A stretch of DNA of 64,000 nt from a virus (taxonomy: Duplodnaviria > Heunggongvirae > Uroviricota > Caudoviricetes). Positions 794 through 22,756 of this stretch are shown in pieces. The stretch lies in the IMG/VR virus record IMGVR_UViG_3300045973_000170, positions 62,842-126,841 of that record, one strand, 5' to 3'. The notes beneath the pieces are model-generated. The model was not told the origin of the DNA. It ran no database searches and saw only the letters and a list, made by a program, of their open reading frames with translations. A program made the translations under genes and the position numbers. Numbering within the stretch: the first letter of the stretch is position 1; each line of letters starts with the position of its first letter.

Positions 794-1015
794 TCACTTG
801 ATATCCTCCTTGAGAATGGTTACCAGCCGGGAAAGCAATTCCTCGTTCAGCACGGTCTTGATGATCTGTCGCGTGGAGATTTCAAATCCCCAGATAAACA
901 GGAGCCAACCAGCCACGAACTTGAGCATGGGTGCATGAGGTTGAGCGATGATGCTGATGCCGAAGCCAAACATCACCTGTCCAAAAACCGACAACCCCAT
1001 CTTTTTCCAATCCAT
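794..1015 (-). CDS. small membrane protein (two hydrophobic segments)
   Basis: 73-aa ORF, hydrophobic stretches; preceded by conserved promoter-leader cassette at 1016-1090. Confidence 0.45.
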   Translation of the reverse strand: MDWKKMGLSVFGQVMFGFGISIIAQPHAPMLKFVAGWLLFIWGFEISTRQIIKTVLNEELLSRLVTILKEDIK

Positions 1016-1090
1016 ATGTTCTCCTGTTCAGAAGTATGATGTAACGTAGCTCACGGGATTACACTTGTCTGTCAGGGTTTCCCTGATTCT
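1016..1090 (-). promoter_or_regulatory. promoter-leader cassette (IR TCAGGGNNNCCCTGA, -35 CAGACA, 17 bp, -10 TACGTT, leader, SD)
   Basis: Member of the repeated cassette family. Confidence 0.5.
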
Positions 1091-1586
1091 ACAGGGCCAT
1101 CGCCATTTTGATTTTCTTGAGTGCGGTGGGTTTGAATCCCCGATGCTTCAGCGTGAGTCCATCAGAGCCAACATAGATCGCCTCCTTGTTACTTTCCCGA
1201 ATTTCGCAATACAGTAACACATTCTTGGGGCGTGAGTTATCGAAGATTTCCAAAGCACTCACCCGTTCCTCAATGTGCCTAATGGTTTGACCAGAGGAAA
1301 TCAAGTCATCAATGATGATGTAACGTCCTCCACCACCACTTCCCTCGTATGGAGTCAGAGCCTTGTGGTACTGGTCATGCGAGTCCTCTTCCTTGCGCCT
1401 GACGTAGATGGGCGTGAGTCCCGTCATGTAACAAATCAGGGACACCAAAGGAATGGAAGACAGACCAGAACCAGCAATCGCCACCACATCTTTGTTGAAT
1501 TTGAGATACCTCTTGACGTTCTTGATGATCTTATCCAACTCATCCCTTTTCATAATGGGGCTGTGATAATTCGGATAATGTGTCAT
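1089..1586 (-). CDS. phosphoribosyltransferase-domain protein
   Basis: PRPP-binding motif RYIIIDDLISSGQT (type I PRTase signature). Confidence 0.6.
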   Translation of the reverse strand: MTHYPNYHSPIMKRDELDKIIKNVKRYLKFNKDVVAIAGSGLSSIPLVSLICYMTGLTPIYVRRKEEDSHDQYHKALTPYEGSGGGGRYIIIDDLISSGQTIRHIEERVSALEIFDNSRPKNVLLYCEIRESNKEAIYVGSDGLTLKHRGFKPTALKKIKMAMAL

Positions 1587-1801
1587 TACTGTACCTTCTG
1601 TTCGATGAGAGCCACCGAATAGGCATCGTCACCCGCCGCCATGAGAGTACCTTCTGCTTCCATGGCCAAGTCTTCCTCACTGAATGCCTGAAGCTGTCCC
1701 GCTTTGGCAAGAGCCTCAAATGCATCAAAGGCATCAAACCCAATCTGAAAGAGGCGCACACTCTTCAGTTCAATGTCTTCCATTTCTATGAGGACAAACA
1801 T
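1586..1801 (-). CDS. hypothetical protein
   Basis: 71-aa ORF directly downstream of promoter-leader cassette 1802-1873. Confidence 0.4.
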   Translation of the reverse strand: MFVLIEMEDIELKSVRLFQIGFDAFDAFEALAKAGQLQAFSEEDLAMEAEGTLMAAGDDAYSVALIEQKVQ

Positions 1802-2183
1802 GGTGTCTCCGTTGAGGTATGCCTAATGATAAGGCGCGGGGTTACTTCTGTCTGTCGGGGATTGCCTGATTCTTCTCCAACTCTTCAATGGCGGCAAATG
1901 CCAATGCCTTGAACTCTGGCGCAAATGGTATTAGCTCACCACCAAAGTAGAAGCCAGCCGCATCCTTGATGATACGCCGTGCCTCATGAATTCCCGTCTG
2001 TATCTGTTCCTTTGTCATAACCCTCCATATCACAACCAATGAGGAATGCAAACACCGTCAGCACGAAAAACCCAATAATGGAAAGAGAAATCTTCGGAAT
2101 AAGAGTAATGGAAAGAATTATTACGAAAATCGTTCCCAATGCGGCATATCCTAAACCGATTCGCCTGAGGATTTCTTTTCTTG

Positions 2184-3002
2184 TCATGAGATTACCTGAA
2201 AGCTGGACGGATGCAGGGACATATCATCCATGACCATGTACTTGCTGAATGCCTCAGGCTCGTAAATCGAAATGTCCCAATCCAAATCACTGAGGTACGG
2301 ATGAAACAGCGCACCAAAGGCAATGTCTGACCTGTCGGTGAGACTGTTCAGATATTCCTTCAGCATTGGCCAACAACGGAATTCATCGGTTGCTCTGCCT
2401 TGTGCCACCATCGGCAGAAGAACAAAGTGCTGAATGTGACCATGATACTTGTTGTAGATTTCCTTGAATGTCTTGACTGACGCATGATTGGAAATCACGA
2501 TATGCAGATTCGTGTAAATGCCACGGTCAATCAACTTTCGTACACCGTCTTCCCACGGAAGATGGGCGTGACAGGATACCGCAACGCCAGTGACGTACTG
2601 TTCTGTTACATCCAGAATCTCATCGGTCAAATGGGTGCCGTTGGTGGTGTAGTTGGGGTCAATGCCAAGGTCATCAAATGCCTTGCAAATGGCCCGAAAC
2701 TCCGGGTGAATGGTGGGTTCACCACCCCCTATTGCCACCTGAAACGGACGCTCATTCAGGCTCATGGGGCCAAAGAAGTCATTGATCTTTTTCGGAATAT
2801 CCTGAAAATCATAATCCCGACCAGTGGATGACTGATAGCAATACGAACAGCCACCATAGCACCGATTGGTGATCTTCACATCATAGAACTCAGGGAACTT
2901 GAGTGCTGTGACGGGCTTCTTTCGATCAATGGGAAGGCGCATGGTCTTCCCATCAATGTAGATGGCCTTGTAGTTTGAGTCGGGGTGGATTCGGGTACGC
3001 AT
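2184..3002 (-). CDS. radical SAM enzyme (QueE/NrdG-like class not resolved)
   Basis: CxxxCxxC cluster (NRCYGGCSYCY) and glycine-rich GGGEP motif; cassette upstream at 3003-3075. Confidence 0.6.
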   Translation of the reverse strand: MRTRIHPDSNYKAIYIDGKTMRLPIDRKKPVTALKFPEFYDVKITNRCYGGCSYCYQSSTGRDYDFQDIPKKINDFFGPMSLNERPFQVAIGGGEPTIHPEFRAICKAFDDLGIDPNYTTNGTHLTDEILDVTEQYVTGVAVSCHAHLPWEDGVRKLIDRGIYTNLHIVISNHASVKTFKEIYNKYHGHIQHFVLLPMVAQGRATDEFRCWPMLKEYLNSLTDRSDIAFGALFHPYLSDLDWDISIYEPEAFSKYMVMDDMSLHPSSFQVIS

Positions 3003-3260
3003 GGTTCTCCTATCTCAGATGTATGATGCAAGGTAGCACACGCACTCAATCCTGTCTGTCAGGCTTTCCCTGAAGTTTTGTTTACCGCCAACCCACAGCG
3101 CGTACACACATCACCTTGATAAGTGCGCTGATAAGCTGGCCCCTTGTAGGTGCCATAGGTGGCAAAGAAAGGATCAAGCTTCTGTCCTAACTCATTATAG
3201 CGCGGAAAGAACTTATGTCCAAAGATTCTTCCCGCCAATGATGGACATGGATGAAATGTA

Positions 3261-3761
3261 TCAACCATCGTAGACTTCGGAAATGTCGAACATCCCCAAA
3301 ACAGTCTTGGCAAAGTCAATGTCCACACCGTCCTTGGTGGTGACAATCAGAGTGGAAGTCAGACCCGTATCCTGACCACTCTGCTTACCCTCAAACAGAG
3401 CTTCCAGAGCTTCCTGATTGGCTTTCTCCCAAACATCCACCGCTTCTCTCTGTGCGGCATAATCTGGCTTCCCTTCAGCGGTCTTGAGATTGATTGCCGC
3501 ATTGAAGGTTTCCAAATCGGGAATATCATCCTGTCTCACATGATGAGACTGAATGTAATACCGAATGCCATCCTGAGAGTAAGTGCGAACGCTGATGTTG
3601 AACAAATCATCAGCCGTCAGGGGTGTACCAGCCACCGAAAGAACCTTATTGATGAGCTTCTTGGCAAGATCAACAGAACCTTGGTGAGCCTCAGTGTAGA
3701 GGACTGAACTACTGTTCGTGATTACATCCACGATGGAGTGAATCGGAATGTGAAATCGCAT
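3261..3761 (-). CDS. hypothetical protein, paralog of 3761-4288
   Basis: Shares N-terminal HSIVDVITNSSSV.YTEAH and C-terminal LIVTTKDGV.IDFAK..L.MFDISE motifs with the adjacent upstream gene. Confidence 0.5.
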   Translation of the reverse strand: MRFHIPIHSIVDVITNSSSVLYTEAHQGSVDLAKKLINKVLSVAGTPLTADDLFNISVRTYSQDGIRYYIQSHHVRQDDIPDLETFNAAINLKTAEGKPDYAAQREAVDVWEKANQEALEALFEGKQSGQDTGLTSTLIVTTKDGVDIDFAKTVLGMFDISEVYDG

Positions 3762-4288
3762 CAGTTGTAGCTCTCGCTGATATCGAACATGGCCAGAGCC
3801 TTCCGTGCGAAGTCAATCTCCACACCATCCTTGGTGGTGACGATCAGGTTGGCATGAATGCCAGTTTCGGTGTTGGCCTCTTCATCATCGAACAGATGGT
3901 TCAGAGCTTCCTGATTCTCATTCTCCCACTTCTCGTATGCCTTGACCTGAGCATTGTAATCAGGCTCACCCTTCTTGTTCGTCAACTCCTGTGACGCCTT
4001 GTATGCGTCCAGATTGGGAATACGAGCAAGCGCATCCTCATCTTCATCATCCACCATACGCTGGATGAAATCGCACAGGTCATCCGTTCCCTTCTGAATA
4101 CGGAAGTTGAACAGGTCATCAGCCTTCTTGTCTGAGCCTGATGCCTTCAGCACAGCATTGATGATTTCCTTGGCCACCTTGATTGAATTATCATGGGCCT
4201 CAGTGTAGATCACGGAGCTACTGTTCGTGATCACATCAACAATGGAGTGGACGAGAATACGGAATTGCATGGTGGTTCTCCTTCTCAT
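3761..4288 (-). CDS. hypothetical protein, paralog of 3261-3761
   Basis: Tandem paralog; cassette upstream at 4289-4347. Confidence 0.5.
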   Translation of the reverse strand: MRRRTTMQFRILVHSIVDVITNSSSVIYTEAHDNSIKVAKEIINAVLKASGSDKKADDLFNFRIQKGTDDLCDFIQRMVDDEDEDALARIPNLDAYKASQELTNKKGEPDYNAQVKAYEKWENENQEALNHLFDDEEANTETGIHANLIVTTKDGVEIDFARKALAMFDISESYN

Positions 4289-4342
4289 GAGGTTATACTA
4301 CAAGGTAATGCATGGATACGTTGTTGTCAGTCAGGGATTCCC

Positions 4343-4756
4343 TTATCTATCCCATGGAGTTGAGCGCACACCCTCTCCCTTCTCTCCATCTTTCAGTACA
4401 AACTTCTTGGGGATGTAACAATTCTCCAACCAAAGAATACCTTTGATTGCCCCCAATAGCACGAATCGTGCCAGATGGATGGGTATGATAGCCCACCATA
4501 ACCCCAAGCACAGCTTGAAGGCGGCTGGAATGGAACACAGTTCACTCACAGAGGTTGCAATGAAAACGTCATTCCACATTTCCACCATGTAGTAACGTTC
4601 CATTACATACTCTTCATCGGTTCTCCAATCCCTGTCCTTTCTTTCGTAAATCACAGGTGGACTCATTCGAAGCCATGCACGAAACGTGCCATAAGCTCCA
4701 ATGAAATAGAGAATGCAGAATACGAGAAAGGTCACGATTTTGCCCCCTCTGTGCAT
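4343..4756 (-). CDS. membrane protein
   Basis: 137-aa ORF with several hydrophobic helices. Confidence 0.4.
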   Translation of the reverse strand: MHRGGKIVTFLVFCILYFIGAYGTFRAWLRMSPPVIYERKDRDWRTDEEYVMERYYMVEMWNDVFIATSVSELCSIPAAFKLCLGLWWAIIPIHLARFVLLGAIKGILWLENCYIPKKFVLKDGEKGEGVRSTPWDR

Positions 4757-5140
4757 GTGGTGTTCATCTTCCGCACAATCACTTCAATGTCATCCAGCTT
4801 ACGGTTGACCGTTTCCATGAGAGCGTTATGATCTTCGATGGCGTCACACACAGCCCTGAGGCTATCAAATGCCTTGTCCATGTCATGCCTCGACATGCGA
4901 TCATCCCCGTAGATGCCGTTGGTGATATTCGTTCTGTGATCGTCAAGTTCATCGTTGGTCATGCATCCTCCTAGATTGGTATTGACCAAATGGGCATTCG
5001 CTCATTCGCTCTGCGCTCTTCATTCAGGCGCATGGCCAACGTGTATTCATCCTGTACAGCCTTGATCAGACGAGCCTTGGCACATTCGAGACAGCAGTAT
5101 TCCCCTGATACGATGGCATCAAGGGAATACTCAACCGCTG

Positions 5141-5482
5141 TCACAGACCCTTCTCCTTGAGCAGGGTGTAGAGCAGAGCCGCCGCCATCAGGCGATGATC
5201 GTTCTCATGGAACCAGTAGGTATCAACACCCACGGGGCCGGGAGTATCCCATGCGGAAACGTACTCGTCGCGCTCTTCTCGCGTGGGGTGAAGCAGAGCA
5301 AGCAACTTGCGATACTCCTTGCCAATCGGCAACACCTTGGGGCGTTCGATCCTGTAATATCCCTGATCGTTGTACCCGTCGAAGCTCTTCTTGTCAATCC
5401 AGCACAGGAAGGGAACTGCCTTCTTCGACATGCACAGGTTGATGTACTGAAGCAGTCGCGTGGAAGCTTTCGGTGCGGCCAT
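5141..5482 (-). CDS. hypothetical protein
   Basis: 113-aa ORF downstream of cassette 5483-5560. Confidence 0.45.
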   Translation of the reverse strand: MAAPKASTRLLQYINLCMSKKAVPFLCWIDKKSFDGYNDQGYYRIERPKVLPIGKEYRKLLALLHPTREERDEYVSAWDTPGPVGVDTYWFHENDHRLMAAALLYTLLKEKGL

Positions 5483-5561
5483 GGGTATGTTCTCCGGTTA
5501 CAGGTTATGACTAATCATAACCCTTGGGTTCATCTGTGTCTGTCAGGGAAACCCTGAATGA

Positions 5562-5879
5562 CTAGGCTTTCTCTCTCTTGATGTTGCCGAACTTTTCCTG
5601 CAACGTCTTCGCTATTTCAACCATCTTGTTCACCACAGCGAAATTCATGCTGTGAATGTGAATCACAAACGGAATGTGACCACGACCATACGCCGCCAAT
5701 TCGATGTAGTTCAACACATCCATGCCCGACTTACCGTAGCCAAGGTCATGATCCAATGACACTTCCGTAATGTCATCCCAACAGGTAGCGAGAATCATGA
5801 CAGCATCCTCGTATGTCTGCACAGTCACCCATGTCTCATCCATGGGACTTCTGCGAATGTCGTCCAAATAGAGTTTCAT
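5562..5879 (-). CDS. hypothetical protein
   Basis: 105-aa ORF. Confidence 0.4.
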   Translation of the reverse strand: MKLYLDDIRRSPMDETWVTVQTYEDAVMILATCWDDITEVSLDHDLGYGKSGMDVLNYIELAAYGRGHIPFVIHIHSMNFAVVNKMVEIAKTLQEKFGNIKREKA

Positions 5880-6199
5880 GAGGATATCACCGTTGTTTGA
5901 GAAATCACGCGCCCAACTACTCGGAACGAGTGAGTGGGATTATGCTTTGCACATTCATCCATTACTGCCTTGGCATGACTAGCGGCAATCCACCCATGGA
6001 TTCCCCATATTTGCCAAGGATCATCTATTGTCTTGTACGGGTGAATCAGGGCGCGAAGCCTATCCCCGTCCTTTTTCTTCTGTTCCCATGTCAGGGGATT
6101 GAACATCAAGTACCCAACATCAGAGTCCGTCCAATCACCACCCTTTGTCTGGTGTTGTACATGAAAGATGCAACAGGTACCATCTTTTCTGAGGCACAT
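5876..6199 (-). CDS. hypothetical protein
   Basis: 107-aa ORF, 4-nt overlap with downstream gene. Confidence 0.4.
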   Translation of the reverse strand: MCLRKDGTCCIFHVQHQTKGGDWTDSDVGYLMFNPLTWEQKKKDGDRLRALIHPYKTIDDPWQIWGIHGWIAASHAKAVMDECAKHNPTHSFRVVGRVISQTTVISS

Positions 6200-6615
6200 T
6201 ACTTCACCCCAAAGATTATGACACCGCTACGTTCCCCGAACGTCACACACTTGATGCTCTGCATGTCGGGAAACTCACAGCGTGGCCCATCAGTGATTTC
6301 GAATTCATCTGAACCCTTCTCCACATCCTTGGGATAATGCCAACCCTTTCCAAAAGATGAGGCATACACCTTACCCCCATCAAATGCATAGGCATAATCG
6401 GTGGTGCGACTGTCATTCCATGGCCACGGCCAGCCCATGGAGGGAAGCGTAGCATCGTCACGGCTGGCCAGAAACGTATTGACAGCCGCACGATAGGACT
6501 TTATGCTCTTGGCCTTTGCAATGATGGGGTCAAGATCATCCCCATCCCATGCAACAGAGCCAAGCCATTCAGCCTTTGCTCCACGACCAATGTAGAAATC
6601 GGCTCGCGTTCCCAT
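6199..6615 (-). CDS. hypothetical protein
   Basis: 138-aa ORF. Confidence 0.4.
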   Translation of the reverse strand: MGTRADFYIGRGAKAEWLGSVAWDGDDLDPIIAKAKSIKSYRAAVNTFLASRDDATLPSMGWPWPWNDSRTTDYAYAFDGGKVYASSFGKGWHYPKDVEKGSDEFEITDGPRCEFPDMQSIKCVTFGERSGVIIFGVK

Positions 6616-6836
6616 TAGTCATCATCCCCAACATCACCACTCACCGAAGACTTGGGAATATTGGCACCACGCTTCTTGGCCCAATCCATCAGCTTGACGG
6701 CGAGAAGGTATACATCGTCAGCACTCAGCCACACCGTCTGATAGGTGTCAGCCTCAGGATAGAAGGCAAGGCGAGTGGCATCATCATCCACTTCCTCAAT
6801 GCACAGCACCTTTGAACCATCTCGACACTTGATCAT
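6615..6836 (-). CDS. hypothetical protein
   Basis: 73-aa ORF downstream of cassette 6837-6906. Confidence 0.45.
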   Translation of the reverse strand: MIKCRDGSKVLCIEEVDDDATRLAFYPEADTYQTVWLSADDVYLLAVKLMDWAKKRGANIPKSSVSGDVGDDD

Positions 6837-6906
6837 TGTTTCTCCTTGAGTGTATGCCTAATGATAAGAGCTAGGCTTGCTTCTGTCCATCAGGCTTTCC
6901 CTGATC
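6837..6906 (-). promoter_or_regulatory. promoter-leader cassette (-35 TGGACA, 17 bp, -10 TATCAT, leader TAGGCATACACTCAAGGAGAAACA-ATG)
   Basis: Read directly. Confidence 0.55.
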
Positions 6907-7290
6907 TTTTGGAATCACGCTGTTGGCCACCTTGTTAGCCAGCTTGGACAGTAGGATGTATGTGTATCGAAAGAAACTTGCGAAGGCAAAGAAGGGGCCG
7001 AAGCACAGTGAGGCAATAGCCGCATTCTTTACTTCCCAATTGGGTTCATCTGGCATTGAAAATCCTTCCTCAATACCATGACACCCACGCATCTTCCACA
7101 CGCTTGGCTGAGTGCGATACCGTGCCACTTCCTGAGGCTTACAACGCCAAGCCCACACACGGAAGAACACAAAGCCGATGATCAGATACCAAAAGAGGAA
7201 AATGAGGAATCCCATTAGTTCACCTTTACGCAAGCGATGGAGTTGAGGTTCTGGCTGTAACACGCCACACCCATGTCTTTGTCGTACCAA
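6871..7290 (-). CDS. membrane protein
   Basis: 139-aa ORF with two TM helices. Confidence 0.4.
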   Translation of the reverse strand: MVRQRHGCGVLQPEPQLHRLRKGELMGFLIFLFWYLIIGFVFFRVWAWRCKPQEVARYRTQPSVWKMRGCHGIEEGFSMPDEPNWEVKNAAIASLCFGPFFAFASFFRYTYILLSKLANKVANSVIPKDQGKPDGQKQA

Positions 7291-7487
7291 CGATACAGCC
7301 CATGGTCAGGTTCAAAGAACGCATGACCATTCGTTTGCTTCTCTTCGGGTTGAGGCTCCGGGGTTGGTGCTGGTGCCTCAAAGGTGGTAGTGGAAAATCC
7401 CTTGTCGTTATTATCCGGCACTGGCTTTTCCTCTTCCTTCTTCACGCACCCAACCAACAGGAGCAAACACAACATGAGATATTTCAC
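7215..7487 (-). CDS. lipoprotein (signal peptide plus Cys)
   Basis: N-terminus MKYLMLCLLLLVGC fits lipobox. Confidence 0.45.
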   Translation of the reverse strand: MKYLMLCLLLLVGCVKKEEEKPVPDNNDKGFSTTTFEAPAPTPEPQPEEKQTNGHAFFEPDHGLYRWYDKDMGVACYSQNLNSIACVKVN

Positions 7488-7657
7488 TTGATCACCTTCC
7501 GGCTGTTGAGTTGACGCGCCATCTGTCCATTCTCACGGCGCAGTTCCTTGACTTCAACGTGCAAGTCAATGAGATTTCCCTTCAGTTGGGCATTATCTTT
7601 TTCCACATTGCGGATAAAGGTTGCCAAACGCTTGAATTCGACTTTGCTCAGTTCCAA
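7484..7657 (-). CDS. small coiled-coil protein, TTG start (not in ORF track)
   Basis: AGGAG 7 nt upstream of TTG; 57 codons LELSKVEFKRLATFIRNVEKDNAQLKGNLIDLHVEVKELRRENGQMARQLNSRKVIK; cassette upstream at 7658-7732. Confidence 0.3.
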   Translation of the reverse strand: MELSKVEFKRLATFIRNVEKDNAQLKGNLIDLHVEVKELRRENGQMARQLNSRKVIK

Positions 7658-7727
7658 TGTCTTCTCCTATCTGATGTACCCCTCCAACCTAACACATGGT
7701 ATGCTTCGTGTCAAGTCAGGGAATCCC

Positions 7728-8141
7728 CTACCCCACCAGCCACCCAAGAACAAAACAGATGATTCCGGTGAACGCCAGCGTATTGATTTTGATGTTGGCG
7801 ACTTTCTTCAACGCCATCATTTCATCAAAAAGGCAATTGCTGTAATCCTCGTAATCACGAATGCAACGCATGAGTCCAGAGATTTGACGGCGCAGACGCT
7901 TGACCTTGCGTACCCTGATTGGATACTGGACAAGCCGTTTCGCATCCATTACCTTTTGCTTTTCAGCACTCACAGCGGCGGCGGCTTCAGCCTTGTCAAT
8001 CTCATCGAATGTCAGCGGAATGGTCACTTGGGAACCCTCGTAATGTATCCAAGGGCAGTCAAGGACAGGACAATACCCGCAACACCCATGAACAGAAGAG
8101 TCGCCTTGATGAACAGATTCGGCCATGTCTTCCCGTTCCAA
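7728..8141 (-). CDS. hypothetical protein with C-terminal TM helix
   Basis: 137-aa ORF. Confidence 0.4.
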   Translation of the reverse strand: MEREDMAESVHQGDSSVHGCCGYCPVLDCPWIHYEGSQVTIPLTFDEIDKAEAAAAVSAEKQKVMDAKRLVQYPIRVRKVKRLRRQISGLMRCIRDYEDYSNCLFDEMMALKKVANIKINTLAFTGIICFVLGWLVG

Positions 8142-8186
8142 ATGAGGGCAAGAAGGACGAATATGATTGTGCTTGCGTAGATGTAG

Positions 8187-8477
8187 TTATTCACTGTGTA
8201 CCTCCATGACATGCCATTCGAAGACGCCTTCCGTTACCCGTCCGATGTATTCAACAGATGATGCAACGATATCCCAACCCGTTCCCACAACACAGAAGAC
8301 ACGATTTTCAGTCTCCATCAGTTTCATGGGATTGACCAAACACCAGATGTAGATATTTTGATAATTGCGATCCTGTTGTATTCCAGCACTCAACACCTTA
8401 GCCCCAATCGGAAGTAGAATCAACTTTCGGTCAGGAGAAGGGCGACCAAGCGGATATTTGAAAATCGACTGTAGCAT
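8187..8477 (-). CDS. hypothetical protein
   Basis: 96-aa ORF; promoter motif 8602-8627 with ~100-nt leader. Confidence 0.4.
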   Translation of the reverse strand: MLQSIFKYPLGRPSPDRKLILLPIGAKVLSAGIQQDRNYQNIYIWCLVNPMKLMETENRVFCVVGTGWDIVASSVEYIGRVTEGVFEWHVMEVHSE

Positions 8478-8639
8478 TATATCTCCGGTAGGTGGTACTC
8501 AGCAGATTTCGTTCCTTGCTCCAACAGACAACGGATAGGAGTAGGTGGCGCGGTATTTCCGGTGCGTTTCCCGTTATCTGAACATTAGCACATGGCTCAT
8601 GTTCTGTCAGTCAGGCTTTCCCTGATTATCTTTTTCTTT

Positions 8640-9233
8640 CTACCTGAGGGAAGTGTACAGGTCGGTGATCCACTTGTTACGCGAGTTGGTGCGCTCATCA
8701 TCTGCCACCTGATTCTCCGTGTGATACTTGATGTTGTGTTCCTCATGCATCATCTGGTCAGCCAGCCACTCAGCACCAGTTTTCAGTGCAGGGGCTTTGA
8801 AATACTTGTCCTCCAACACATCCCAATTGATGGATTCATCCAACTGCTTGAGCATGAAATCCTTAAGATTTTGGTGATCGGGGGTAGGGGGAATCCATGC
8901 CGTCACCTTGGCAATCATGGCCTGATAGCGAGCTTCAACTTTCATGTTGTCGATCTTGCTCTTCACCCCATCCTGCACAGCCTTTTCATGTTCCTCTGCG
9001 GCCTTCTTATTGGCCTGTGCAATGGTCATTTTCTTGAGCTTGGCCAGATTCTCCTGTGCCGTCACCAATGCCTTCTGGTGGTAAGTATCCTTTGGTTGAA
9101 CTTTTGAGGGATCGGAGGCAGGATCGTTACGTTGCATGATGCAAGCCCCGAATGCCTTTGCACAAATCAATACAAAGGCATTCAGGTCAGTGACCGTCCC
9201 ATCGTTTACCCCACATGTGTATCCGCTTGGCAT
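8640..9233 (-). CDS. hypothetical protein
   Basis: 197-aa ORF. Confidence 0.45.
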   Translation of the reverse strand: MPSGYTCGVNDGTVTDLNAFVLICAKAFGACIMQRNDPASDPSKVQPKDTYHQKALVTAQENLAKLKKMTIAQANKKAAEEHEKAVQDGVKSKIDNMKVEARYQAMIAKVTAWIPPTPDHQNLKDFMLKQLDESINWDVLEDKYFKAPALKTGAEWLADQMMHEEHNIKYHTENQVADDERTNSRNKWITDLYTSLR

Positions 9234-9527
9234 TTACCAATCCTCCCCGCAAATGAATGGTGGTGGTGGTGTATCAGCATCTTCACCCTCAACGAGAGTG
9301 ATTGTGAAGTCCTTGGCCTCTACCAACCCCTGACCACGAAGCTCCTTGGTGAGGCTCTTACGCGCATCATTGGCCTTCTCAGCCTCAACCACCCGATGAG
9401 TGAACTCGGCTGTCTCGCCAGAGCCACGCCATACGATTGTGCATGTGAACTTTTTCATCGGTTGCTCGTATTGAGAATGTAATGAAGTTGAAATGCAGGA
9501 TTGAAAACAGGAGAACAACGACCACAC
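9234..9527 (-). CDS. hypothetical protein
   Basis: 97-aa ORF. Confidence 0.4.
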   Translation of the reverse strand: MWSLFSCFQSCISTSLHSQYEQPMKKFTCTIVWRGSGETAEFTHRVVEAEKANDARKSLTKELRGQGLVEAKDFTITLVEGEDADTPPPPFICGEDW

Positions 9528-9910
9528 GACCTATTGTTTTTCGGCTTACGGTGACGCCGACGAATCAAACCACACGCATGACATTCGGCAATCCACTTGA
9601 ACGTAACAGCCGTCATCCCTGTGCCATACCGATTACCATTGGAACCCAACTCAATGGCCTTGGAACGCCACACATGATCGTGTCCATGACCAACACCAAC
9701 CACTGCATGGGCAACCTCATGAGCAATCGTATCCTTGACCGCATCCTCCCCATCGGGAAGGTGAAACTTGCTGACTTCAATGCGACGGTGGTTGTATTTG
9801 CACACCCCAAGACGCCGCTTGTTGCTGTTGATCTTGAAACCCCATCCGTGCAACCCCTGTGCATCAAGCATCTGGCGAGCATGTAGCATTGCGTTCGTCG
9901 GGTGCATCAC
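9455..9910 (-). CDS. SprT-like zinc metallopeptidase
   Basis: HExxH motif (IAHEVAHAV) in SprT-like context; cassette upstream 9911-9982. Confidence 0.5.
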   Translation of the reverse strand: MMHPTNAMLHARQMLDAQGLHGWGFKINSNKRRLGVCKYNHRRIEVSKFHLPDGEDAVKDTIAHEVAHAVVGVGHGHDHVWRSKAIELGSNGNRYGTGMTAVTFKWIAECHACGLIRRRHRKPKNNRSCGRCSPVFNPAFQLHYILNTSNR

Positions 9911-9982
9911 AATCTCCGTTCAGAAGGTATGACTAATGATAAACAGGGGTGAGGCGTGTGTCAGTCAGGGAATCCCCGAATC
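9911..9982 (-). promoter_or_regulatory. promoter-leader cassette (IR TCAGGGAATCCCCGA, -35 CTGACA, 17 bp, -10 TATCAT)
   Basis: Read directly. Confidence 0.55.
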
Positions 9983-10432
9983 CGACTCTGAATCTTCTCG
10001 TACTCATCGTTGGTCTTCTTGACGTTCATAATCCAGAGCGCACATGCCGTGTTCATTCCCACACAGAACAGTTGCCAGATGGCAAGGCCGACACGACCAT
10101 GGGAGAAGTTGAAGATGCACATGAAAGAATTCAAACCAACGGCAACCCAATTGATCCAGATTGCAAAATTCAGAAGCGTTGTCGCTTTCATTATAGTTCC
10201 CCCTTGCTTGAAGCCGATGGTAGTTGTCCACGCTGAAACTTATCGTGCTTGATATCATCAGCCATGGCCAGTACAGCGTTGTCCCAAGTCTGTTCCTGAT
10301 AGGACAGGCCAAGTGCGGCCTCACGGAAGATTTGAAGAAGTTCAGGCATATCCGTTTCTTGCAGGGGACGCTCAATCTCAATGTAACTACGTCCCTCATC
10401 TTCCATCATTTCAACCGTGAGCCGAATCATGG

Positions 10433-10846
10433 TCAGTTGCGGAGAGCGTTGGCGGCACGTTCAGCCAACAGAATCGTAGTACCCATCTCCCGCACCTGTT
10501 CGAACTCCACCGGAGCTTCCCCCTCGAAACTGTCAATGTCAGCACAAATCTCGCGGAGCAGAGGCATACGAGCCGTCGCCTTGGCAGTCAACTCAGCCTT
10601 GACGATCTTGGCCAAGTCCTGAAGCCCTGCGTCGATCTGTTCACGGGTCTTTTCACCCCGCACCAAGACGCCCTGACCGTCAGCGATGGCCTGATCGCGC
10701 TTGAATCCATACTCGGACTCAGCCGCCGTCACCTGTGCATCGTACAGGTCAATCTTGTCGAGAATCTGCCGCTTAGTAGCCATGATTGGTGTCCCCCATG
10801 TTGAGCTTGAGTTTACGCGCAAGCTTGATGTACCGTTTGGTGGCAC
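10433..10846 (-). CDS. hypothetical protein
   Basis: 137-aa ORF. Confidence 0.4.
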   Translation of the reverse strand: MPPNGTSSLRVNSSSTWGTPIMATKRQILDKIDLYDAQVTAAESEYGFKRDQAIADGQGVLVRGEKTREQIDAGLQDLAKIVKAELTAKATARMPLLREICADIDSFEGEAPVEFEQVREMGTTILLAERAANALRN

Positions 10847-10970
10847 CCTGCTTGACGTTTGAATTGAAAACGTGGAGATTGGTCAGGCTCCCCTGTGGCC
10901 GCATCTTGCGAATGGGCATCTTCGTCGGGGTGTCGTACTGATCGTCCATGTCCTCGTACTTGTTACGCAT

Positions 10971-11043
10971 TGTGTTCTCCGTTGAGGTATGGGGGTAATG
11001 ATAAACCTCTCACCACCCCATGTCAGTCAGGGAATCCCTGAAG
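10971..11043 (-). promoter_or_regulatory. promoter-leader cassette (IR TCAGGGATTCCCTGA, -35 CTGACA, 17 bp, -10 TATCAT)
   Basis: Read directly. Confidence 0.55.
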
Positions 11044-11565
11044 TTAGCCGCTGAAGGCGATGAGGGAACACACACCAACCAGAATGAGCATCAGGAGAAA
11101 GTGAAAACCAATTGGTTCACCATCCGATTCAGTTTCACCATACTCCTTGGATGTAATCTTTCCGTCAGCACCAAAGTTCTCCTTCTTCAGAAACTTGTGA
11201 CCAATGTACTTGCGTAGCGACCAGAGGATCATTGGAAGAACGAGAACAAAGAGTATTGCAGAAATACAAAAATGCAAAAGCTCTCGTCCAACCACCTTCC
11301 AAACCACCAGAGCCATGGTCAAATGACCAACCTTGGTTTCTGCAAACTTGCTGGTCTGCTCTGTGACAGCCGACAGCGAAGAGTTGATGGCCTCACCAAC
11401 CTCCTTGCCAAGACCCACCCACTCACGGGCCGACTGCACTTCAACCACTTGTTTCTGTTGGGCCGTCAGCGTGTTCTTTGGCACCATCACCATGGTCACG
11501 GTGTCCTGTGCCGCCATCGGAATGGCCAGCATCAGCGCGAACAGCATACCTACGAATCTACGCAT
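11044..11565 (-). CDS. secreted/membrane protein (signal peptide); start moved to ATG at 11563-11565
   Basis: ORF-track start at 11598 lies inside the -10 box; ATG at 11565 sits 8 nt after GGAGAAACA SD and gives signal peptide MRRFVGMLFALMLAIPMAAQ. Confidence 0.45.
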   Translation of the reverse strand: MRRFVGMLFALMLAIPMAAQDTVTMVMVPKNTLTAQQKQVVEVQSAREWVGLGKEVGEAINSSLSAVTEQTSKFAETKVGHLTMALVVWKVVGRELLHFCISAILFVLVLPMILWSLRKYIGHKFLKKENFGADGKITSKEYGETESDGEPIGFHFLLMLILVGVCSLIAFSG

Positions 11566-11639
11566 TGTTTCTCCTATTGAAGGGGTATGACTAATCATAA
11601 TTCACACCCATGTTCATGTCAGTCAAGGAATCCCTGAAG

Positions 11640-11903
11640 TTAGCCCTTCATGGTTGGCGTCTTGCGACGAACAGGACACCACAGTTCATTCAGCGCAACG
11701 ATTACTGGCGGGGCAATCATTTCAACGAAAATGATACCCACCACAAGGTTTCGCGTTGACACCTTGTAGACGAGAGTGCTATCCCTTTCGTCCTGACTGT
11801 TGAAGCCCACACACGATACCGGGGTGGACTCACCCGGAAGTGTAACCTCTGACACACAGCCTGTCAAGAGGAAAAGCGGAAGAATCATCAGCATTTTTTT
11901 CAT
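11640..11903 (-). CDS. lipoprotein
   Basis: MKKMLMILPLFLLTGC lipobox. Confidence 0.45.
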   Translation of the reverse strand: MKKMLMILPLFLLTGCVSEVTLPGESTPVSCVGFNSQDERDSTLVYKVSTRNLVVGIIFVEMIAPPVIVALNELWCPVRRKTPTMKG

Positions 11904-12442
11904 TATGCCCCCTTGTGTCCATCGTTTTTGTCCAGCGTCTTCTTGAAAAGCTGACGGCTGGCGACATGGTAAACTACGATTCCCTCTGGCTTCATGAATC
12001 CCGGTGCGGCCTTTGACCCACCATACTTCAACTCCAACAGGATTTCATCAATGTCATGAGTATTGAAGATACCCGTGAAAAGCGTCGGCACCACATGGCA
12101 ACAGGCAGGACGAACATCGTCAGTCCAGCGACTTGTGTTGAAGAGGCTGAACCTCTTCTCAGTCAGCCCGTAGTTGCGCTGAATGCCCTGTCCCCACCAC
12201 TCTCCGAAGTGCTGGCCGATACCAAGGCCAATGCGAAGCTCGTCCTCATGGGCGACCACCCACTTGGCGAATCCGGCATTGTCTTCCTGAGGCGTGATCC
12301 AACGTGTGCGACTACCAGCGAATACCTCACCCTCTGGCGTTACCACAACCTGTGCGTTGGTGCCATCAATCTTCTCGCTGATGACACAATCGCGGGTGAG
12401 GCGGCTGATGCTCGGAAACTCTGCAAACTCTGGTCTGCTCAT
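11903..12442 (-). CDS. RNA ligase-like nucleotidyltransferase (Rnl2-type motifs)
   Basis: Motif I KIDGTN, motif IV EGIVVY, motif V FKKTLDK. Confidence 0.55.
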   Translation of the reverse strand: MSRPEFAEFPSISRLTRDCVISEKIDGTNAQVVVTPEGEVFAGSRTRWITPQEDNAGFAKWVVAHEDELRIGLGIGQHFGEWWGQGIQRNYGLTEKRFSLFNTSRWTDDVRPACCHVVPTLFTGIFNTHDIDEILLELKYGGSKAAPGFMKPEGIVVYHVASRQLFKKTLDKNDGHKGA

Positions 12443-12450
12443 GGATTCTC

Positions 12451-12882
12451 CTAGATGTTCAAGAAATCGTTGCGTGGATCATCGTCCATTTCATCGGGTG
12501 GCTCATACTCTGGGCCATCATCTTCAGGAAGCTCTGGCTCAATCTTATTGACCAGATAGAATTCCTTGCACTCAGGACACTGAATCAGACTCTTCTTTTC
12601 CTCGTCTGTCCATCCCTCAATGTCCTTGTTCTTTCTTTCTGCTTCCTGTTGCTTTTCCCACCATTCCCAAATGTCCTCAACGTCAGTCACATCGACGCCG
12701 CAACACTGAGTCTCAAAGGTGGAATGTTCGTCAATCCACTCTTGCTCTTCCTGTCGCTCTGCCTCTTCCTGATAGGGGCGTTCAAGCCAGCTATCGTAAC
12801 CAGCCCACGGATCAGAGGCCATAGTTATGCTCTGCGCGAATGCGATTGATGATCTTGAGGTACGCCTGAGTTTTTTTCTCAA
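12451..12882 (-). CDS. acidic hypothetical protein
   Basis: 143-aa ORF, E/D/W-rich. Confidence 0.4.
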   Translation of the reverse strand: MRKKLRRTSRSSIAFAQSITMASDPWAGYDSWLERPYQEEAERQEEQEWIDEHSTFETQCCGVDVTDVEDIWEWWEKQQEAERKNKDIEGWTDEEKKSLIQCPECKEFYLVNKIEPELPEDDGPEYEPPDEMDDDPRNDFLNI

Positions 12883-13010
12883 TTGCTTCGTCTATGGGCT
12901 TTGAACCACCATCACCATACCGATACCAGCCTTCAGCATCCCCCTGTTCTCTTGCACATTCCACAAGATCATCAAGAAGAGCTTCAATTTCTTGAATATA
13001 CGGTTCGATG

Positions 13011-13304
13011 TTACTCACCGTCAAGCTCACAGGTGCAGAAGAGCAACGTGTTACCACACTCGTCGCACATTTCACTGTCCAGTTCATCATCACTGGATTC
13101 AATGTCTTCATACCCGAAGTCCACATCGAAGGACTTGAGCGTGACCACAATCAGGTTGTCATAATCCCCTGACATGGCATTTGCACGGTACTCTTCGATC
13201 TTCTCCTTGCTCCACCCCGCTTTCTTGGCAACAGCGACAGCGCGGCCAATGATAGCAAAGGCATTGCCATCCTCACCTTCCAGCTTCAGTTTCGGCTTGC
13301 TCAT
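13011..13304 (-). CDS. acidic hypothetical protein
   Basis: 97-aa ORF; TTGACA-type promoter 13349-13371. Confidence 0.4.
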   Translation of the reverse strand: MSKPKLKLEGEDGNAFAIIGRAVAVAKKAGWSKEKIEEYRANAMSGDYDNLIVVTLKSFDVDFGYEDIESSDDELDSEMCDECGNTLLFCTCELDGE

Positions 13305-13378
13305 CGTGTCTCCTTGTAAAGATTATGACTCAAGCTACACGGTGGTATGCTGTCTGTCAAGGGGTGGAGCAAAGAAAG

Positions 13379-14281
13379 TTACAGAGGACGGCAGAGCCAA
13401 CGAATCGCACGATTCTGCCAGATGCCGCGCATCTTCGTCAGATCACAAATCTTCTTGACCGTGCGAAGGCTGTACTCACGCAAGTTGTCCTTGTTCTCAT
13501 GCATGAACCCAAGGATTTCCTTACCAAGCCCCTCATCAATCTCTTCCTTCTCAAACATCTTGCCTTCAAGGGCAACGTGGTTGATCCAGAGAGCAATGGA
13601 ATGCATATCGTGTAAATGCAAATCCAGATAATAGGCGCGGCTGATCAATGCGGCCATGTGCGTAGAATACTTGTTCTTGCCATCATCCACGAATGCCTGA
13701 AAGTCCAAGTTCGAAGAGAAGATAACACCACCCTCAAACACATGCGTCTTCTCAATGTTGTTGTCAGCCATGGTGCGATTGTCCTTGCGCCAGCTTACGA
13801 TACGCTTGCGCGTGGTATCGGTCATGGCCTTGAGGATGTTGAGACTGTCTTCATCGCGGAAGATGTTGTCACAATCATCAAACACCAGCACTTCTCCCTT
13901 GTGCTTGTACTTGTAGGACAACTGGTACAAGTCGGGTGCGCTGATTCCACCAGTGGTGGACACATAGCGATGATTCATCGAATCAAGGATATTGGTGATG
14001 GTGTAAGTCTTTCCCATTCCCGGCTTGCTAGTGACAATCATTGAACGGGCCTTTCCCCTCGCCACATCACCCGACATTAGCCCCAACTCATTGAAGCCTT
14101 CAGTCAGATCGGCAACAATTTCATCGTCGCTCTTGCGCGGAATGTTCACCCGTGCCGTCACCATCGCTTCCCGTGCCGCCACCATTTCCTTGGTGGGCCG
14201 TCCACGCTTCTTGGGCATGAAGGGGCTACTGATCACCCCACGGGGGATCGTTGGTACACTGGTTGTCATAATCGCCGTCAT
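13379..14281 (-). CDS. P-loop NTPase (Walker A GMGKT, Walker B LVFDDCD)
   Basis: Motifs read directly; cassette variant upstream 14282-14353. Confidence 0.55.
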   Translation of the reverse strand: MTAIMTTSVPTIPRGVISSPFMPKKRGRPTKEMVAAREAMVTARVNIPRKSDDEIVADLTEGFNELGLMSGDVARGKARSMIVTSKPGMGKTYTITNILDSMNHRYVSTTGGISAPDLYQLSYKYKHKGEVLVFDDCDNIFRDEDSLNILKAMTDTTRKRIVSWRKDNRTMADNNIEKTHVFEGGVIFSSNLDFQAFVDDGKNKYSTHMAALISRAYYLDLHLHDMHSIALWINHVALEGKMFEKEEIDEGLGKEILGFMHENKDNLREYSLRTVKKICDLTKMRGIWQNRAIRWLCRPL

Positions 14282-14647
14282 TTGTCCCTCGTTGAATGAT
14301 GTACCTTATGATAACCACAAGGGATACACTGTGCTATCAGGGTATCCCTTATCTTTCCAATACTTTGGGAGCAGGGGACGGTGGGATTCCAACCCACGAT
14401 CTTATTCATTGGTACTCACTAGCTTTCCCAATGATTGCTTTGAAGCACTAAGCTACGCCCCCCCAAAGTCCCCTATGTTGGCTCTTCCTTTCGGATTGTA
14501 GGCGTGGTCTGTGATGACGCCTCGTTCAGCCCAACACTACTGTTTACTGCGATGAGGGGGTGGGGGACTTGAACACCCATTTATTTCGAGTATCGGTATC
14601 GGTAGAAGTACATTCCTATCCTTCCCTACACTCCCCTCACTTCTTGT

Positions 14648-15040
14648 TTACTGCGCGTCCGTGGTGACAGGAGCCTCGACAGCAACCGGGGCCGCATCGA
14701 CCTTCGTGACGTTGGAAATCTTCTTGCCCGTGCCAACCGGACGGCCACGCACCGAAGCAACGAAAGCGTTGACCGGAGCCTTGATGTAGCGGTAGTCAGC
14801 CTTGCTCGTACCGTAGCGAGCCTTGACCACACCATCCGTCACGTTGACCACAACCACCCGCGAACCAGCCTTGAGGGGGTGACCAAGCGTATTGCGAACG
14901 GACTGCGTGAGGCGAACCACCTGAAGCGTCTTGAACATTAGAACCTCCTGTGTGAAACGTTGTGTGTTGCTCATGAATCGTACCCTAATCATAACTGCCC
15001 TACTCCTTCCTGTCAAGCCCCTTCTACAACATTCTCTCAT
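14648..15040 (-). CDS. hypothetical protein in GC-rich island (probable start MFKT at ~14940)
   Basis: ORF with ~60 percent GC versus ~45 percent elsewhere; overlapping Arg-rich alternative frame typical of GC-rich DNA. Confidence 0.4.
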   Translation of the reverse strand: MRECCRRGLTGRSRAVMIRVRFMSNTQRFTQEVLMFKTLQVVRLTQSVRNTLGHPLKAGSRVVVVNVTDGVVKARYGTSKADYRYIKAPVNAFVASVRGRPVGTGKKISNVTKVDAAPVAVEAPVTTDAQ

Positions 15041-15296
15041 TTTCTTTTCGTGAGAAAACAGATACTTCTATTGGGGTGAGCAGGGTTATCATCCATGTTG
15101 CCTCATTTAGGGCAATGAGGCTTGGCGGCGATGAACCCGCTGTTCCTCTGACTCACGAAAGGAATAGTAAAGGGTGGGTAATCCCATGTCAAGGGGTAAG
15201 ATGAAATTCTTTCAGGGGGTAATATGCAATGGGTAAATGCCGTAATGCAAAAACCCTACAGCGGGGTGCTGTAGGGTAAAGTCTTAGGAGATTCTC

Positions 15297-15629
15297 CTAC
15301 TCGTTGTCAGGGAAACTCTCATAGTGATATTCAATGTCCAATGTCACCATATCATCATCAGTCCTTTGACTCTCAGCCCAGACGTTATACGCCTCAACCA
15401 TCTTAGCCTCTGCCTTCTCGCACAAGTCTTCCTGTTCCCCAAGGATGAATTTGCACTTACAGGTTTGGCCCACCATTTCTATCCACGAATCTACTTCATA
15501 CTCGCCATCGTGATGGTAGACTTCTGAATTCCACTTAAAGGTCAATTGACCCTCTTTACATTCTGGGCATTCAAGTGTTGTTGTGTCATTCACAAGATGA
15601 AACCATGTCTCTACAGGATGATTGGCCAT
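15297..15629 (-). CDS. hypothetical Cys-rich protein
   Basis: 110-aa ORF with CPECKEG and CKCKF motifs. Confidence 0.4.
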   Translation of the reverse strand: MANHPVETWFHLVNDTTTLECPECKEGQLTFKWNSEVYHHDGEYEVDSWIEMVGQTCKCKFILGEQEDLCEKAEAKMVEAYNVWAESQRTDDDMVTLDIEYHYESFPDNE

Positions 15630-15664: not shown

Positions 15665-16093
15665 TTAACGTTTTGGTTTGGGCCAAATACCAACGATTTC
15701 ATAAACTTCCTCATACTCATGTAGCCCCACAGCAGACATGTCACTTGGATCGTGAATGATACCTCGCCAATCCATTACCACCGAATGATAATACCCTTCA
15801 TCCATTGTTCCAACCACATGAACAGGAGCAAATGGTGCAACGGGCCAAGGAGTTCTTTCAATCTGTTGAGGGCTATAGAATTTGGTGATGTTGGACACAC
15901 AATAGTTCTTCTCCCCCAGATATTCATAAAACATCCTATCACTCACACCCCTTTCTCTGTACAAATCCCAGAAGGGGATCATGTCGTGCATAACTTCATC
16001 ATACGTTTGTCCTGTCACCATGGCCAAACACGCAATCACACAATCTGTATCTTCCCTCTGAGCAACATACACAATCGATGGTATCTGTTCCAT
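15665..16093 (-). CDS. papain-like cysteine peptidase (C39-like) candidate
   Basis: DCVIACLAMVTG resembles C39 catalytic Cys motif. Confidence 0.4.
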   Translation of the reverse strand: MEQIPSIVYVAQREDTDCVIACLAMVTGQTYDEVMHDMIPFWDLYRERGVSDRMFYEYLGEKNYCVSNITKFYSPQQIERTPWPVAPFAPVHVVGTMDEGYYHSVVMDWRGIIHDPSDMSAVGLHEYEEVYEIVGIWPKPKR

Positions 16094-16162
16094 TGGTACT
16101 CCTGATAAATACGAGTAGTTCCCGCTTTCAATCTATCACACTCTAGAGCCAGAGTCAAGCCC

Positions 16163-22410: not shown

Positions 22411-22432
22411 GCCTCCATGATAATGTCATAAG

Positions 22433-22507
22433 AGCATCGTGAGGGATTTGAACCCCCGCATACGGGGGTTGCAATCCCGCGCCTTACCACTTGGCCAACG
22501 ATGCATA
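22433..22507 (-). tRNA. tRNA (anticodon arm ambiguous, possibly UGC)
   Basis: T-arm GGGGGTTCAAATCCCTC and 7-bp acceptor GCATCGT/ACGATGC. Confidence 0.55.
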
Positions 22508-22509
22508 AG

Positions 22510-22582: not shown

Positions 22583-22585
22583 AAG

Positions 22586-22659: not shown

Positions 22660-22672
22660 TCTTGTACAACTA

Positions 22673-22747: not shown

Positions 22748-22756
22748 TACAACAGT

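Follow-up and report, generated by a model that had tools for sequence, protein, structure and literature searches.

We analysed a stretch of 64,000 nucleotides (nt), hereafter the window, from the genome of an uncultured tailed phage (IMG/VR record IMGVR_UViG_3300045973_000170, positions 62,842 to 126,841). The window represents 64 of ~170 kb, has a GC content of ~0.47 and carries all of its genes on the minus strand. Near its beginning lies a family of candidate promoter-leader cassettes, each placed directly upstream of a gene. Twelve of them, serving minus-strand gene starts from 1015 to 14281, contain a 15-base palindrome, TCRGGG-WWW-SCCYGA (Table 1). In consensus, a cassette runs from the palindrome (TCAGGG-WWW-CCCTGA) through a -35 box (CTGACA or CAGACA), a 17-nt spacer, a TAnnnT -10 box, ~4 nt, a CATAC(C) motif, and a short leader with GGAG(A) to the start codon. 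An earlier interpretation made from the letters alone (the sequence-only reading) had listed 13 such gene starts, and a cassette is present at all of them. Anchored on the -35 box, the spacer between the xxGACA-like and TAnnnT boxes is 17 bp in 13 of 13 copies, and GGAG(A) lies 5-9 nt ahead of ATG, GTG, or TTG in every copy.

Table 1. Coordinates of cassettes, promoters, and other features in the window; elements are given in the direction of transcription
Feature	Position	Strand	Elements or remarks
Cassette A	1016..1086	minus	TCAGGGaaaCCCTGA, CAGACA, N17, TACGTT, ACATCATAC, GGAGA, ATG 1015
Cassette B	1802..1869	minus	TCAGGCaatCCCCGA (two mismatched pairs), CAGACA, N17, TATCAT, TAGGCATACC, GGAGA, ATG 1801
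Cassette C	3003..3073	minus	TCAGGGaaaGCCTGA, CAGACA, N17 (TGc), TACCTT, ATG 3002 (radical SAM gene)
Cassette D	4289..4345	minus	TAAGGGaatCCCTGA, CTGACA, N17, TACCTT, ATG 4288
Cassette E	5483..5557	minus	TCAGGGtttCCCTGA, CAGACA, N17, TATGAT, TAGTCATAAC, ATG 5482
Cassette F	6837..6904	minus	TCAGGGaaaGCCTGA, TGGACA, N17, TATCAT, TAGGCATACA, ATG 6836
Cassette G	7658..7730	minus	TAGGGGattCCCTGA, c, TTGACA (register +1), N17 (TGt), TAGGTT, TTG 7657
Cassette H	8478..8625	minus	TCAGGGaaaGCCTGA, CTGACA, N17 (TGc), TAATGT, ~105-nt leader, ATG 8477
Cassette I	9908..9979	minus	TCGGGGattCCCTGA (G-T pair), CTGACA, N17, TATCAT, TAGTCATACC, GGAGA, ATG 9907 or GTG 9910 (SprT-like gene)
Cassette J	10971..11041	minus	TCAGGGattCCCTGA, CTGACA, N17, TATCAT, ATG 10970
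Cassette K	11566..11637	minus	TCAGGGattCCTTGA, CTGACA, N17, TATGAT, TAGTCATACC, ATG 11565
Cassette M	14282..14351	minus	TAAGGGataCCCTGA, TAGCAC, N17, TATCAT, ATG 14281 (AAA ATPase gene)
Palindrome-free (class I) promoter	13305..13367	minus	ccacccc-TTGACA, N17, TAGCTT, GAGTCATAAT, ATG 13304
Palindrome-free (class I) promoter	14939..15021	minus	ggggc-TTGACA, N17, TATGAT, TAGGGTAC, AGGAGG, ATG 14938
Palindrome-free promoters with complementary G/C runs	47485, 41439, 29630, 24879, 27579 (first -35 base)	minus	Example: GGGTGGGGGG-TTGACA-aacag-CCCCCCACCC
Canonical intrinsic terminator	15253..15277	minus	10-bp stem then TTTTT; contrast to the cassette palindromes
38 tRNA genes	22432-41916	minus (sense strand)	~20 kb; many with their own CCCC-TTGACA promoter
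Weak phosphoribosyltransferase match	1089-1586	minus	Accessory gene
Radical SAM protein	2184-3002	minus	Accessory gene
cREC_REC receiver domain	5562-5879	minus	Accessory gene
DUF7352	8187-8477	minus	Accessory gene
SprT-like protease	9455-9910	minus	Accessory gene
RNA ligase-like protein	11903-12442	minus	Accessory gene

Conservation of the cassettes

The cassettes are strongly enriched over chance. A 20-nt pattern spanning the palindrome and the -35 box (CAGGGWWWSCCTGACWGACA; up to 3 mismatches allowed) matches the minus strand at 10 sites between 1066 and 11636, plus one palindrome echo on the plus strand, whereas shuffled sequences gave a mean of 0.17 matches and at most 2. A relaxed scan of the 64-kb window found no copy with 0-1 mismatch past 14.4 kb. 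The observation made in the sequence-only reading is thereby confirmed. Its description of the copies as near-identical does not hold, as two copies compared without gaps over 75 nt share 48% identity on average (31-71%; 25% expected at random). The exact palindrome formula that it proposed fits six copies, and six more need one or two mismatches. Likewise, the -10 sequence given there (TATCAT or TATGAT) occurs in seven of the 13 copies; the others have TACGTT, TACCTT (two copies), TAGGTT, TAATGT, and TAGCTT. Three copies with one of these other -10 boxes carry a TGn extension.

Identity is distributed unevenly within the cassette. It reaches 75% in the -35 box, 69% in the -10 box, and 67% in the palindrome, and falls to 33% (near-random) in the spacer. 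This concentration in the palindrome and the two boxes argues for selection on the signals rather than recent duplication. A generic sigma-70 consensus scan flagged six cassettes. The cassettes very likely function as promoters, judging by the ordered -35 box, 17-bp spacer, -10 box, start region, and GGAG motif, and by the recurrence of this core in relatives; their earlier description as promoter-leader cassettes stands at the level of sequence.

Other features of the cassettes gave little signal. The 8 nt examined upstream of the palindrome do not resemble an UP element (AT content of 0.49 vs 0.53 in the background), and only the last 4 nt before the palindrome are A-rich, largely owing to stop codons. 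Rfam has no family matching the cassettes or the unusually long leader of cassette H, whose predicted fold is no better than that of shuffles (z = 0.31). Stop codons in three frames (TGA, TGA, and TAG) can be read from the cassette, but we rejected them as a feature because they are indistinguishable from chance in a 75-nt non-coding stretch.

A promoter class without the palindrome

IMG/VR scans with the cassette pattern located the element in one lineage only, represented by two near-identical contigs of 168 and 27 kb. The remaining matches were single chance matches in unrelated contigs, often of high GC content. These scans, combined with a protein probe, recovered IMGVR_UViG_3300020049_006071 (168 kb), whose AAA protein is 70% identical to that of the window. 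Comparisons with this 70% relative cover 29 kb assembled from it. A metagenome scan with the AAA protein yielded short contigs only, and the radical SAM gene, used as a probe, retrieved unrelated AT-rich phages without cassettes.

A sense-strand scan of the window for xxGACx-N16-18-TAnnnT identified ~20 further candidate promoters between 13 and 55 kb, several of which precede tRNA genes. These lack the palindrome and have a perfect TTGACA after a G/C run (CCCC or GGGC). We refer to them as class I; two members are detailed in Table 1, and promoters at 15192 and 16158 also belong here. Both classes have the same -10 and start-region features (e.g., TATGAT-TAGGGTAC at 15016), which indicates that the family first described is the palindrome-bearing subset (12 window copies) of a genome-wide promoter type. 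The promoter at 13304, previously taken for a cassette with a degraded inverted repeat, is instead a class I ccacccc-TTGACA promoter homologous to the one at the same junction in a relative. Similarly, the simpler TTGACA form noted at 15009-15021 is present and belongs to this same palindrome-free class. The suggestion that a single regulator switches the whole early block overreaches, because palindrome-free promoters are interspersed among the cassettes (13360, 15016, 15192, and many in the relative) and spread over the rest of the window.

In the 70% relative, the same consensus is found in at least 13 palindrome cassettes; in one sub-type, cTTGCGn or cTAGCGn, N17, and TAnnnT come after the palindrome. 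CCCC-TTGACA palindrome-free promoters are interspersed among these cassettes. An 88% relative (L012/L024) retains cassette M, at a position where the 70% relative has a palindrome-free TTGACA promoter. Downstream of the AAA gene, the 88% relative carries a palindrome cassette, but the promoter found there in both the window and the 70% relative lacks the palindrome. A more distant 45% relative (L026) encodes a very regular unit (CCCC/CCAC, TTGACT/A, N17, TAssTT, nnnTCATACC, nnAACGGAG, N5-7, and ATG), and its cassettes contain no palindrome at all. The promoter-leader unit is thus probably old, and the palindrome a later addition in one sub-lineage.

Several palindrome-free promoters have a G/C run before the -35 box whose complement lies immediately ahead of the -10 box (Table 1). 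Pairing of these runs would give a stem-loop enclosing the -35 box, resembling sub-types of the stem-loop cassettes of phages RB49/phi1 described below.

Position of the palindrome and strength of the -35 box

Across ~26 copies from the window and relatives, the palindrome ends either 0 or 1 nt before the -35 box, and no other register occurs. This gap places the centre of the palindrome at about -42/-43 from the predicted transcription start. For a comparison of -35 boxes, promoters were detected without reference to that box, by requiring TAnnnT, a CATAC-like start region, a ribosome site, and a start codon. Palindrome-free detections comprised chance intragenic matches (0-3 of 6 positions at -35) and real intergenic promoters. 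A perfect TTGACA is present in 12 of 13 of the real palindrome-free promoters but in just one of 14 palindrome-bearing ones. Most -35 boxes next to a palindrome match the consensus at 4-5 of 6 positions, and some match at only 2-3.

The palindrome as a possible stem-loop

Composite cassettes of this kind have a precedent, which the sequence-only reading missed. T4-type phages (RB49/phi1, PST/T4, and nt-1/KVP40) carry promoter-early stem-loop (PeSL) cassettes, which consist of an early promoter, a stem-loop, a ribosome site, and an ATG, and are sited in hyperplastic regions (Arbiol et al. 2010, PMC2839356; Comeau et al. 2014, PMC4122927). A variant in nt-1, 'PmSL', which belongs with the middle promoters discussed below, is also described (PMC4122927). 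PeSL cassettes mediate gene shuffling and give rise to mini-circles and indels (PMC2839356, PMC4122927), and in a lacZ reporter one PeSL stem-loop lowered expression to the same extent as the rrnB T1 terminator (PMC2839356). The family in the window is best classed as a lineage-specific variant of PeSL-type cassettes. Like PeSLs, its members are composite units of ~70-100 bp that recur between the genes of a T4-related phage; they place a stem-loop-capable sequence beside a sigma-70-like -35/N17/-10 arrangement upstream of a ribosome site and a start codon; and they cluster among small ORFans in a hyperplastic region. The stem sequence is lineage-specific in both cases, and the nt-1 stem (AAAGGG-loop-CCCTTT) has the same GGG/CCC core. 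There are also differences. In the window, a short stem is followed by CWGACA and not by an AT- or U-rich stretch, its sequence is conserved beyond pairing, and it accompanies non-consensus -35 boxes. It also occupies one fixed position flush with the -35 box, whereas RB49/phi1 stem-loops occur in five different positions. The kind of cassette is already known; what appears to be new, and is a testable twist, is a palindrome fixed at ~-43 and coupled with a weakened -35 box.

In the orthodox PeSL interpretation, the palindrome would act as an RNA stem-loop that attenuates or terminates read-through or protects the upstream 3' end, i.e., as a terminator followed by an independent early promoter. 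The architecture equals that of published PeSLs, the reporter result with rrnB T1 as its yardstick concerns just such an element, and the consensus hairpin (6-bp stem and 3-nt loop) is predicted to fold as RNA in 10 of the 13 window copies, at -3.9 to -8.2 kcal/mol. The palindrome is also located at gene ends, much as the G+C-rich inverted repeats of rho-independent terminators are. For example, a palindrome cassette directly follows each of two membrane-protein paralogues (4343-4756 and 6871-7290, both minus strand) and likewise their homologue in a merged relative sequence (15803-16135; the merged sequence comprises L009 1-18579 and L020).

Several observations nonetheless make this interpretation unlikely. 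A T/U tract after the palindrome is absent from every copy, stems are 3-6 bp long and of low stability (RNA energies over all copies range from -0.3 to -8.2 kcal/mol), and copies B and L have no predicted RNA fold. A terminator scan called no minus-strand palindrome on the sense strand. The phage does have canonical terminators with T runs on the same strand (15277-15253, 16595, 42775, and 61587-61553). Upstream open reading frames (ORFs) traverse the palindrome or end within it in at least six cassettes, so that ribosomes would translate into or through the hairpin. In cassette B the upstream ORF continues through the palindrome and the -35 box, and in cassette F it traverses the palindrome and terminates within the spacer. 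The upstream stop codon is a TGA in the 3' arm of the palindrome in cassette C, a TAA and a TAG in the variant 5' arms of cassettes D and G, respectively, and a TGA within CTGACTGACA, just past the palindrome, in cassette I. On these sequence grounds (no T run, weak stems, no scan call, and translated stems) we rejected a canonical terminator. Moreover, rigid 0/+1 nt spacing and a link to weak -35 boxes would be unexpected for two independent signals.

Base-pairing statistics from 26 copies point the same way. Although 88% of stem cells are paired, 395 of 500 column shuffles reach the observed pairing. We found no covariation in the stem and one double change only. Half of the copies (13 of 26) have an internal mismatch, and A-C is as frequent as G-U: pair 3/13 shows four G-U, five A-C, and one G-C, and pair 2/14 shows eight mismatches. 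The sequence itself is conserved: the GG..C core and the GA end do not vary, and every copy has W3 at its centre, with AAA/TTT and AAT/ATT both present, and TCAGGG/TCGGGG variation occurs independently in both arms. Symmetric variation of the arms and a W3 centre in both orientations are as predicted for a duplex site bound by a symmetric dimer.

Related sequences occur at the end of gene 15297-15629. Here a decayed palindrome without a promoter lies at 15307-15320 (minus strand). The terminator that follows the ortholog of this gene in L025 (8532-8600) shares the GGGGTTTCCCC core and adds a T run, and a symmetric variant, TAAGGGTTTCCCTTA, follows the ortholog in L024 (2157-2260).

A candidate regulator site

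The fixed position, the weak -35 box, the absence of covariation, and the lack of terminator features together favour a regulator site. The palindrome looks more like a protein-binding site beside a weakened promoter than like a terminator, and we assign a probability of roughly 0.45 to its being the site in duplex DNA of a dimeric protein that acts on RNA polymerase. In this proposal, the cassettes would be portable sigma-70-type promoter and 5'-leader units, each driving one to five small accessory genes. Their old core consists of the -35 box, 17 bp, TAnnnT, the CATACC start region, and a short GGAG leader. This sub-lineage would then have added the 15-bp palindrome (TCRGGG-WWW-CCCYGA) flush with the -35 box, alongside -35 boxes other than TTGACA. 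A dimeric protein of phage or host origin may bind the palindrome duplex (TCAGGGAATCCCTGA) and contact RNA polymerase, either activating these promoters (with the geometry seen for Mor at Mu Pm and for class II activators) or shutting them off jointly, so that they would form a co-regulated subset. The elements, their spacing and enrichment, the link to weak -35 boxes, and the lack of terminator features and covariation are observed, whereas the transcription start, the binding of a protein, and the direction of regulation are inferred.

Known promoters offer parallels to this proposal. At the Mu Pm promoter, a 16-bp element centred at -43.5 takes the place of the -35 box, and its two inverted repeats are bound by a Mor dimer (PMC4390567). 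As in Pm and the C-dependent Mu late promoters (PMC4390567, PMC2582627), the cassettes have a short inverted repeat at ~-42 to -43.5, a recognisable -10 box, and a sub-optimal -35 box, and several promoters share one site. They differ in that their -35 boxes are weakened (4-5 of 6) and not absent, in that the site sequence is unrelated, and in that no Mor/C-like or other activator was found among ~70 window ORFs. Class II CRP/FNR promoters have the same geometry, with the activator dyad next to the -35 box or in its place. In T4 middle promoters, which depend on MotA and AsiA, the MotA box is non-palindromic, lies at -30, and replaces the -35 box. The cassettes resemble these in forming a second promoter class that keeps a sigma-70 -10 box and adds a phage-specific upstream element; they differ in having a palindrome upstream of a retained -35 box and no MotA or AsiA domain found in the window.

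Other observations weigh against a regulator site. A Pfam and PHROG search of the ~70 ORFs of the window (64 of ~170 kb) revealed no DNA-binding domain, whether helix-turn-helix, Mor/C, MotA, or AsiA, and a regulator candidate was not found. The weak -35 boxes could have been inherited from one founder cassette rather than selected, and since most copies match at 4-5 of 6 positions, the promoters may work unaided. The conserved sequence of the stem limits the covariation test, such that missing covariation is compatible with a hairpin. Finally, the PeSL stem-loops, which are the closest analogue, terminate transcription in a reporter (PMC2839356).

We also considered a broader version of the regulator-site proposal, which we regard as possible but doubtful. 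Here, at least 12 promoters in the window and at least 13 in the relative would form an undescribed regulon with deliberately weakened -35 boxes, which one dimeric protein at ~-43 would turn on or off jointly. Such a regulon would amount to middle-mode-like control, unrelated to MotA/AsiA, grafted on an older portable cassette.

Gene turnover and possible recombination at the cassettes

The palindrome could instead belong to a recombination linker, with mobile cassettes in which it is a recombination target or a passenger. Short conserved patches would then allow genes to be gained, lost, or exchanged along with their own expression signals. The region around the cassettes is hyperplastic: homologues in the assembled 29 kb of the relative exist for only 4 of the 34 ORFs below 11.6 kb, compared with 10 of the 19 further upstream. 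Cassettes K and J share a 31-nt direct repeat (GGCTAACTTCAGGGATTCCyTGACTGACATG) that flanks a 173-amino-acid gene missing from the relative. The cassette J ortholog in the relative is ~100% identical over 57 nt, next to coding sequence that is 70-80% identical, and the homology begins exactly at the 5' edge of the palindrome. Gene 6615-6836 is found behind a palindrome cassette at a different location in the relative, and which of the two promoter classes occupies a given junction can differ between relatives. The K/J repeat, the homology edge, and the relocated gene are suggestive of recombination footprints, in keeping with the mini-circles and indels reported for PeSLs (PMC2839356, PMC4122927).

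Linkage by recombination is, however, less likely still than RNA attenuation as an account of the palindrome. By hand count, transitions between shared and unshared genes fall at cassettes in 5 of 12 cases, compared with cassettes at ~13 of 38 junctions, which is no clear enrichment. L028 and the relative are 97-99.9% identical to each other over 21 kb, and none of three indels between them touches a palindrome cassette, a further departure from PeSLs. One gene is swapped for an unrelated one between L028 (20137-20332) and the merged relative sequence (19931-20236), with junctions in the ribosome-site motif GGAGACAACCCCGTG; this swap used translation-start microhomology and not the palindrome. 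Cassettes that are 48% identical offer identical runs of only ~12-30 nt, and conservation of the palindrome would be left unexplained.

Alternatively, the palindrome may be a functionless relic of one founder cassette spread by duplication, in which case its link to a weak -35 box would simply be inherited. Its absence from the distant relative L026, which has the same promoter-leader unit, its many imperfect copies, and the missing covariation would fit such an origin. We consider it improbable, because the palindrome holds 67% identity, with its invariant GG..C core and GA end, while the neighbouring spacer has fallen to 33%. Further, the palindrome is retained even inside coding sequence, and its consensus is maintained in a relative with just 70% identity in the neighbouring proteins.

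The palindrome consensus resembles N4 early promoters in its stem and loop dimensions. Use of an extruded hairpin (6-bp stem and 3-nt loop) by a phage single-subunit RNA polymerase, with a start ~11 nt downstream, nevertheless deserves very little credence: many copies form a weak DNA hairpin or none (0 to -4.9 kcal/mol), which makes cruciform and N4-type models unattractive, a complete sigma-70 -35/17/-10 arrangement follows every palindrome at fixed spacing, class I promoters and L026 have the same -10 box and leader without a hairpin, and the relatives carry T4 markers and are not N4-like. We therefore rejected both cruciform and N4-type models.

The phage and its gene content

The phage is an uncultured, deep-branching relative of T4, as indicated by its proteins and those of related contigs. 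Its primase matches 2398 phage records at no more than 38% identity, with T4-like cyanophages as the best matches, and the groups named among these matches are mostly hosts of T4-type phages. The window also encodes an ATP-dependent ligase, EndoVII, a gp30.3-like NADAR domain, and a gp21-like protease fragment. Contigs with an AAA ATPase 44-45% identical to that of the window (gene 13379-14281) encode gp32, a gp33-type late coactivator, and rIIB; a gp61-type primase is a further T4 marker of the relatives. Among cultured phages, an 8-kb megablast query and a tblastn query with the 893-aa (amino acid) ORF gave no match, and blastn with one cassette gave chance 18-mers only. That ORF (56898-59579, minus strand) and a second large one of 610 aa (19117-20949, minus strand) have no Pfam or PHROG match. 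Genes 3261-3761 and 3761-4288 (minus strand) are tandem duplicates of ~170 aa each.

Several features concern RNA genes and their surroundings. One of the tRNA calls (40495-40565) is abnormal in having a 2-nt anticodon. A 90-nt tRNA-like gene lies directly upstream of cassette M (14373-14462, minus strand). It scores 40.3 bits against the Rfam tRNA family, is not called by ARAGORN, has an apparent insertion of ~15-19 nt near the anticodon arm, and is kept in the 88% relative. In L028, a GIY-YIG-type homing-endonuclease-like ORF (3106-4025; MYYLVYKLTNQINGKFYIGV...) stands in place of a different segment amid the tRNA genes of the sister strain. Lastly, long untranslated stretches of 100-220 nt, as against the usual leader of ~25 nt, follow some palindrome cassettes (e.g., 8478-8590 on the minus strand of the window, 19715-19934 and 21265 onward in the merged relative sequence, and 1170-1378 in L012). 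These stretches could be small RNAs or decayed genes.

Implications for T4-type phages

T4-type phages are a model for the viral programming of host RNA polymerase, yet the control of their accessory regions is poorly understood outside T4. If the palindrome is a regulator site, it would define a simple regulon by sequence, with about a dozen promoters and one 15-bp site, and would show a portable promoter cassette gaining a new control element. If it is a PeSL-type attenuator, PeSLs would extend to a deep-branching uncultured relative of T4, and their stem-loops need not resemble terminators. In either case, the cassettes are useful landmarks when transcription units are annotated in metagenomic phages of this kind.

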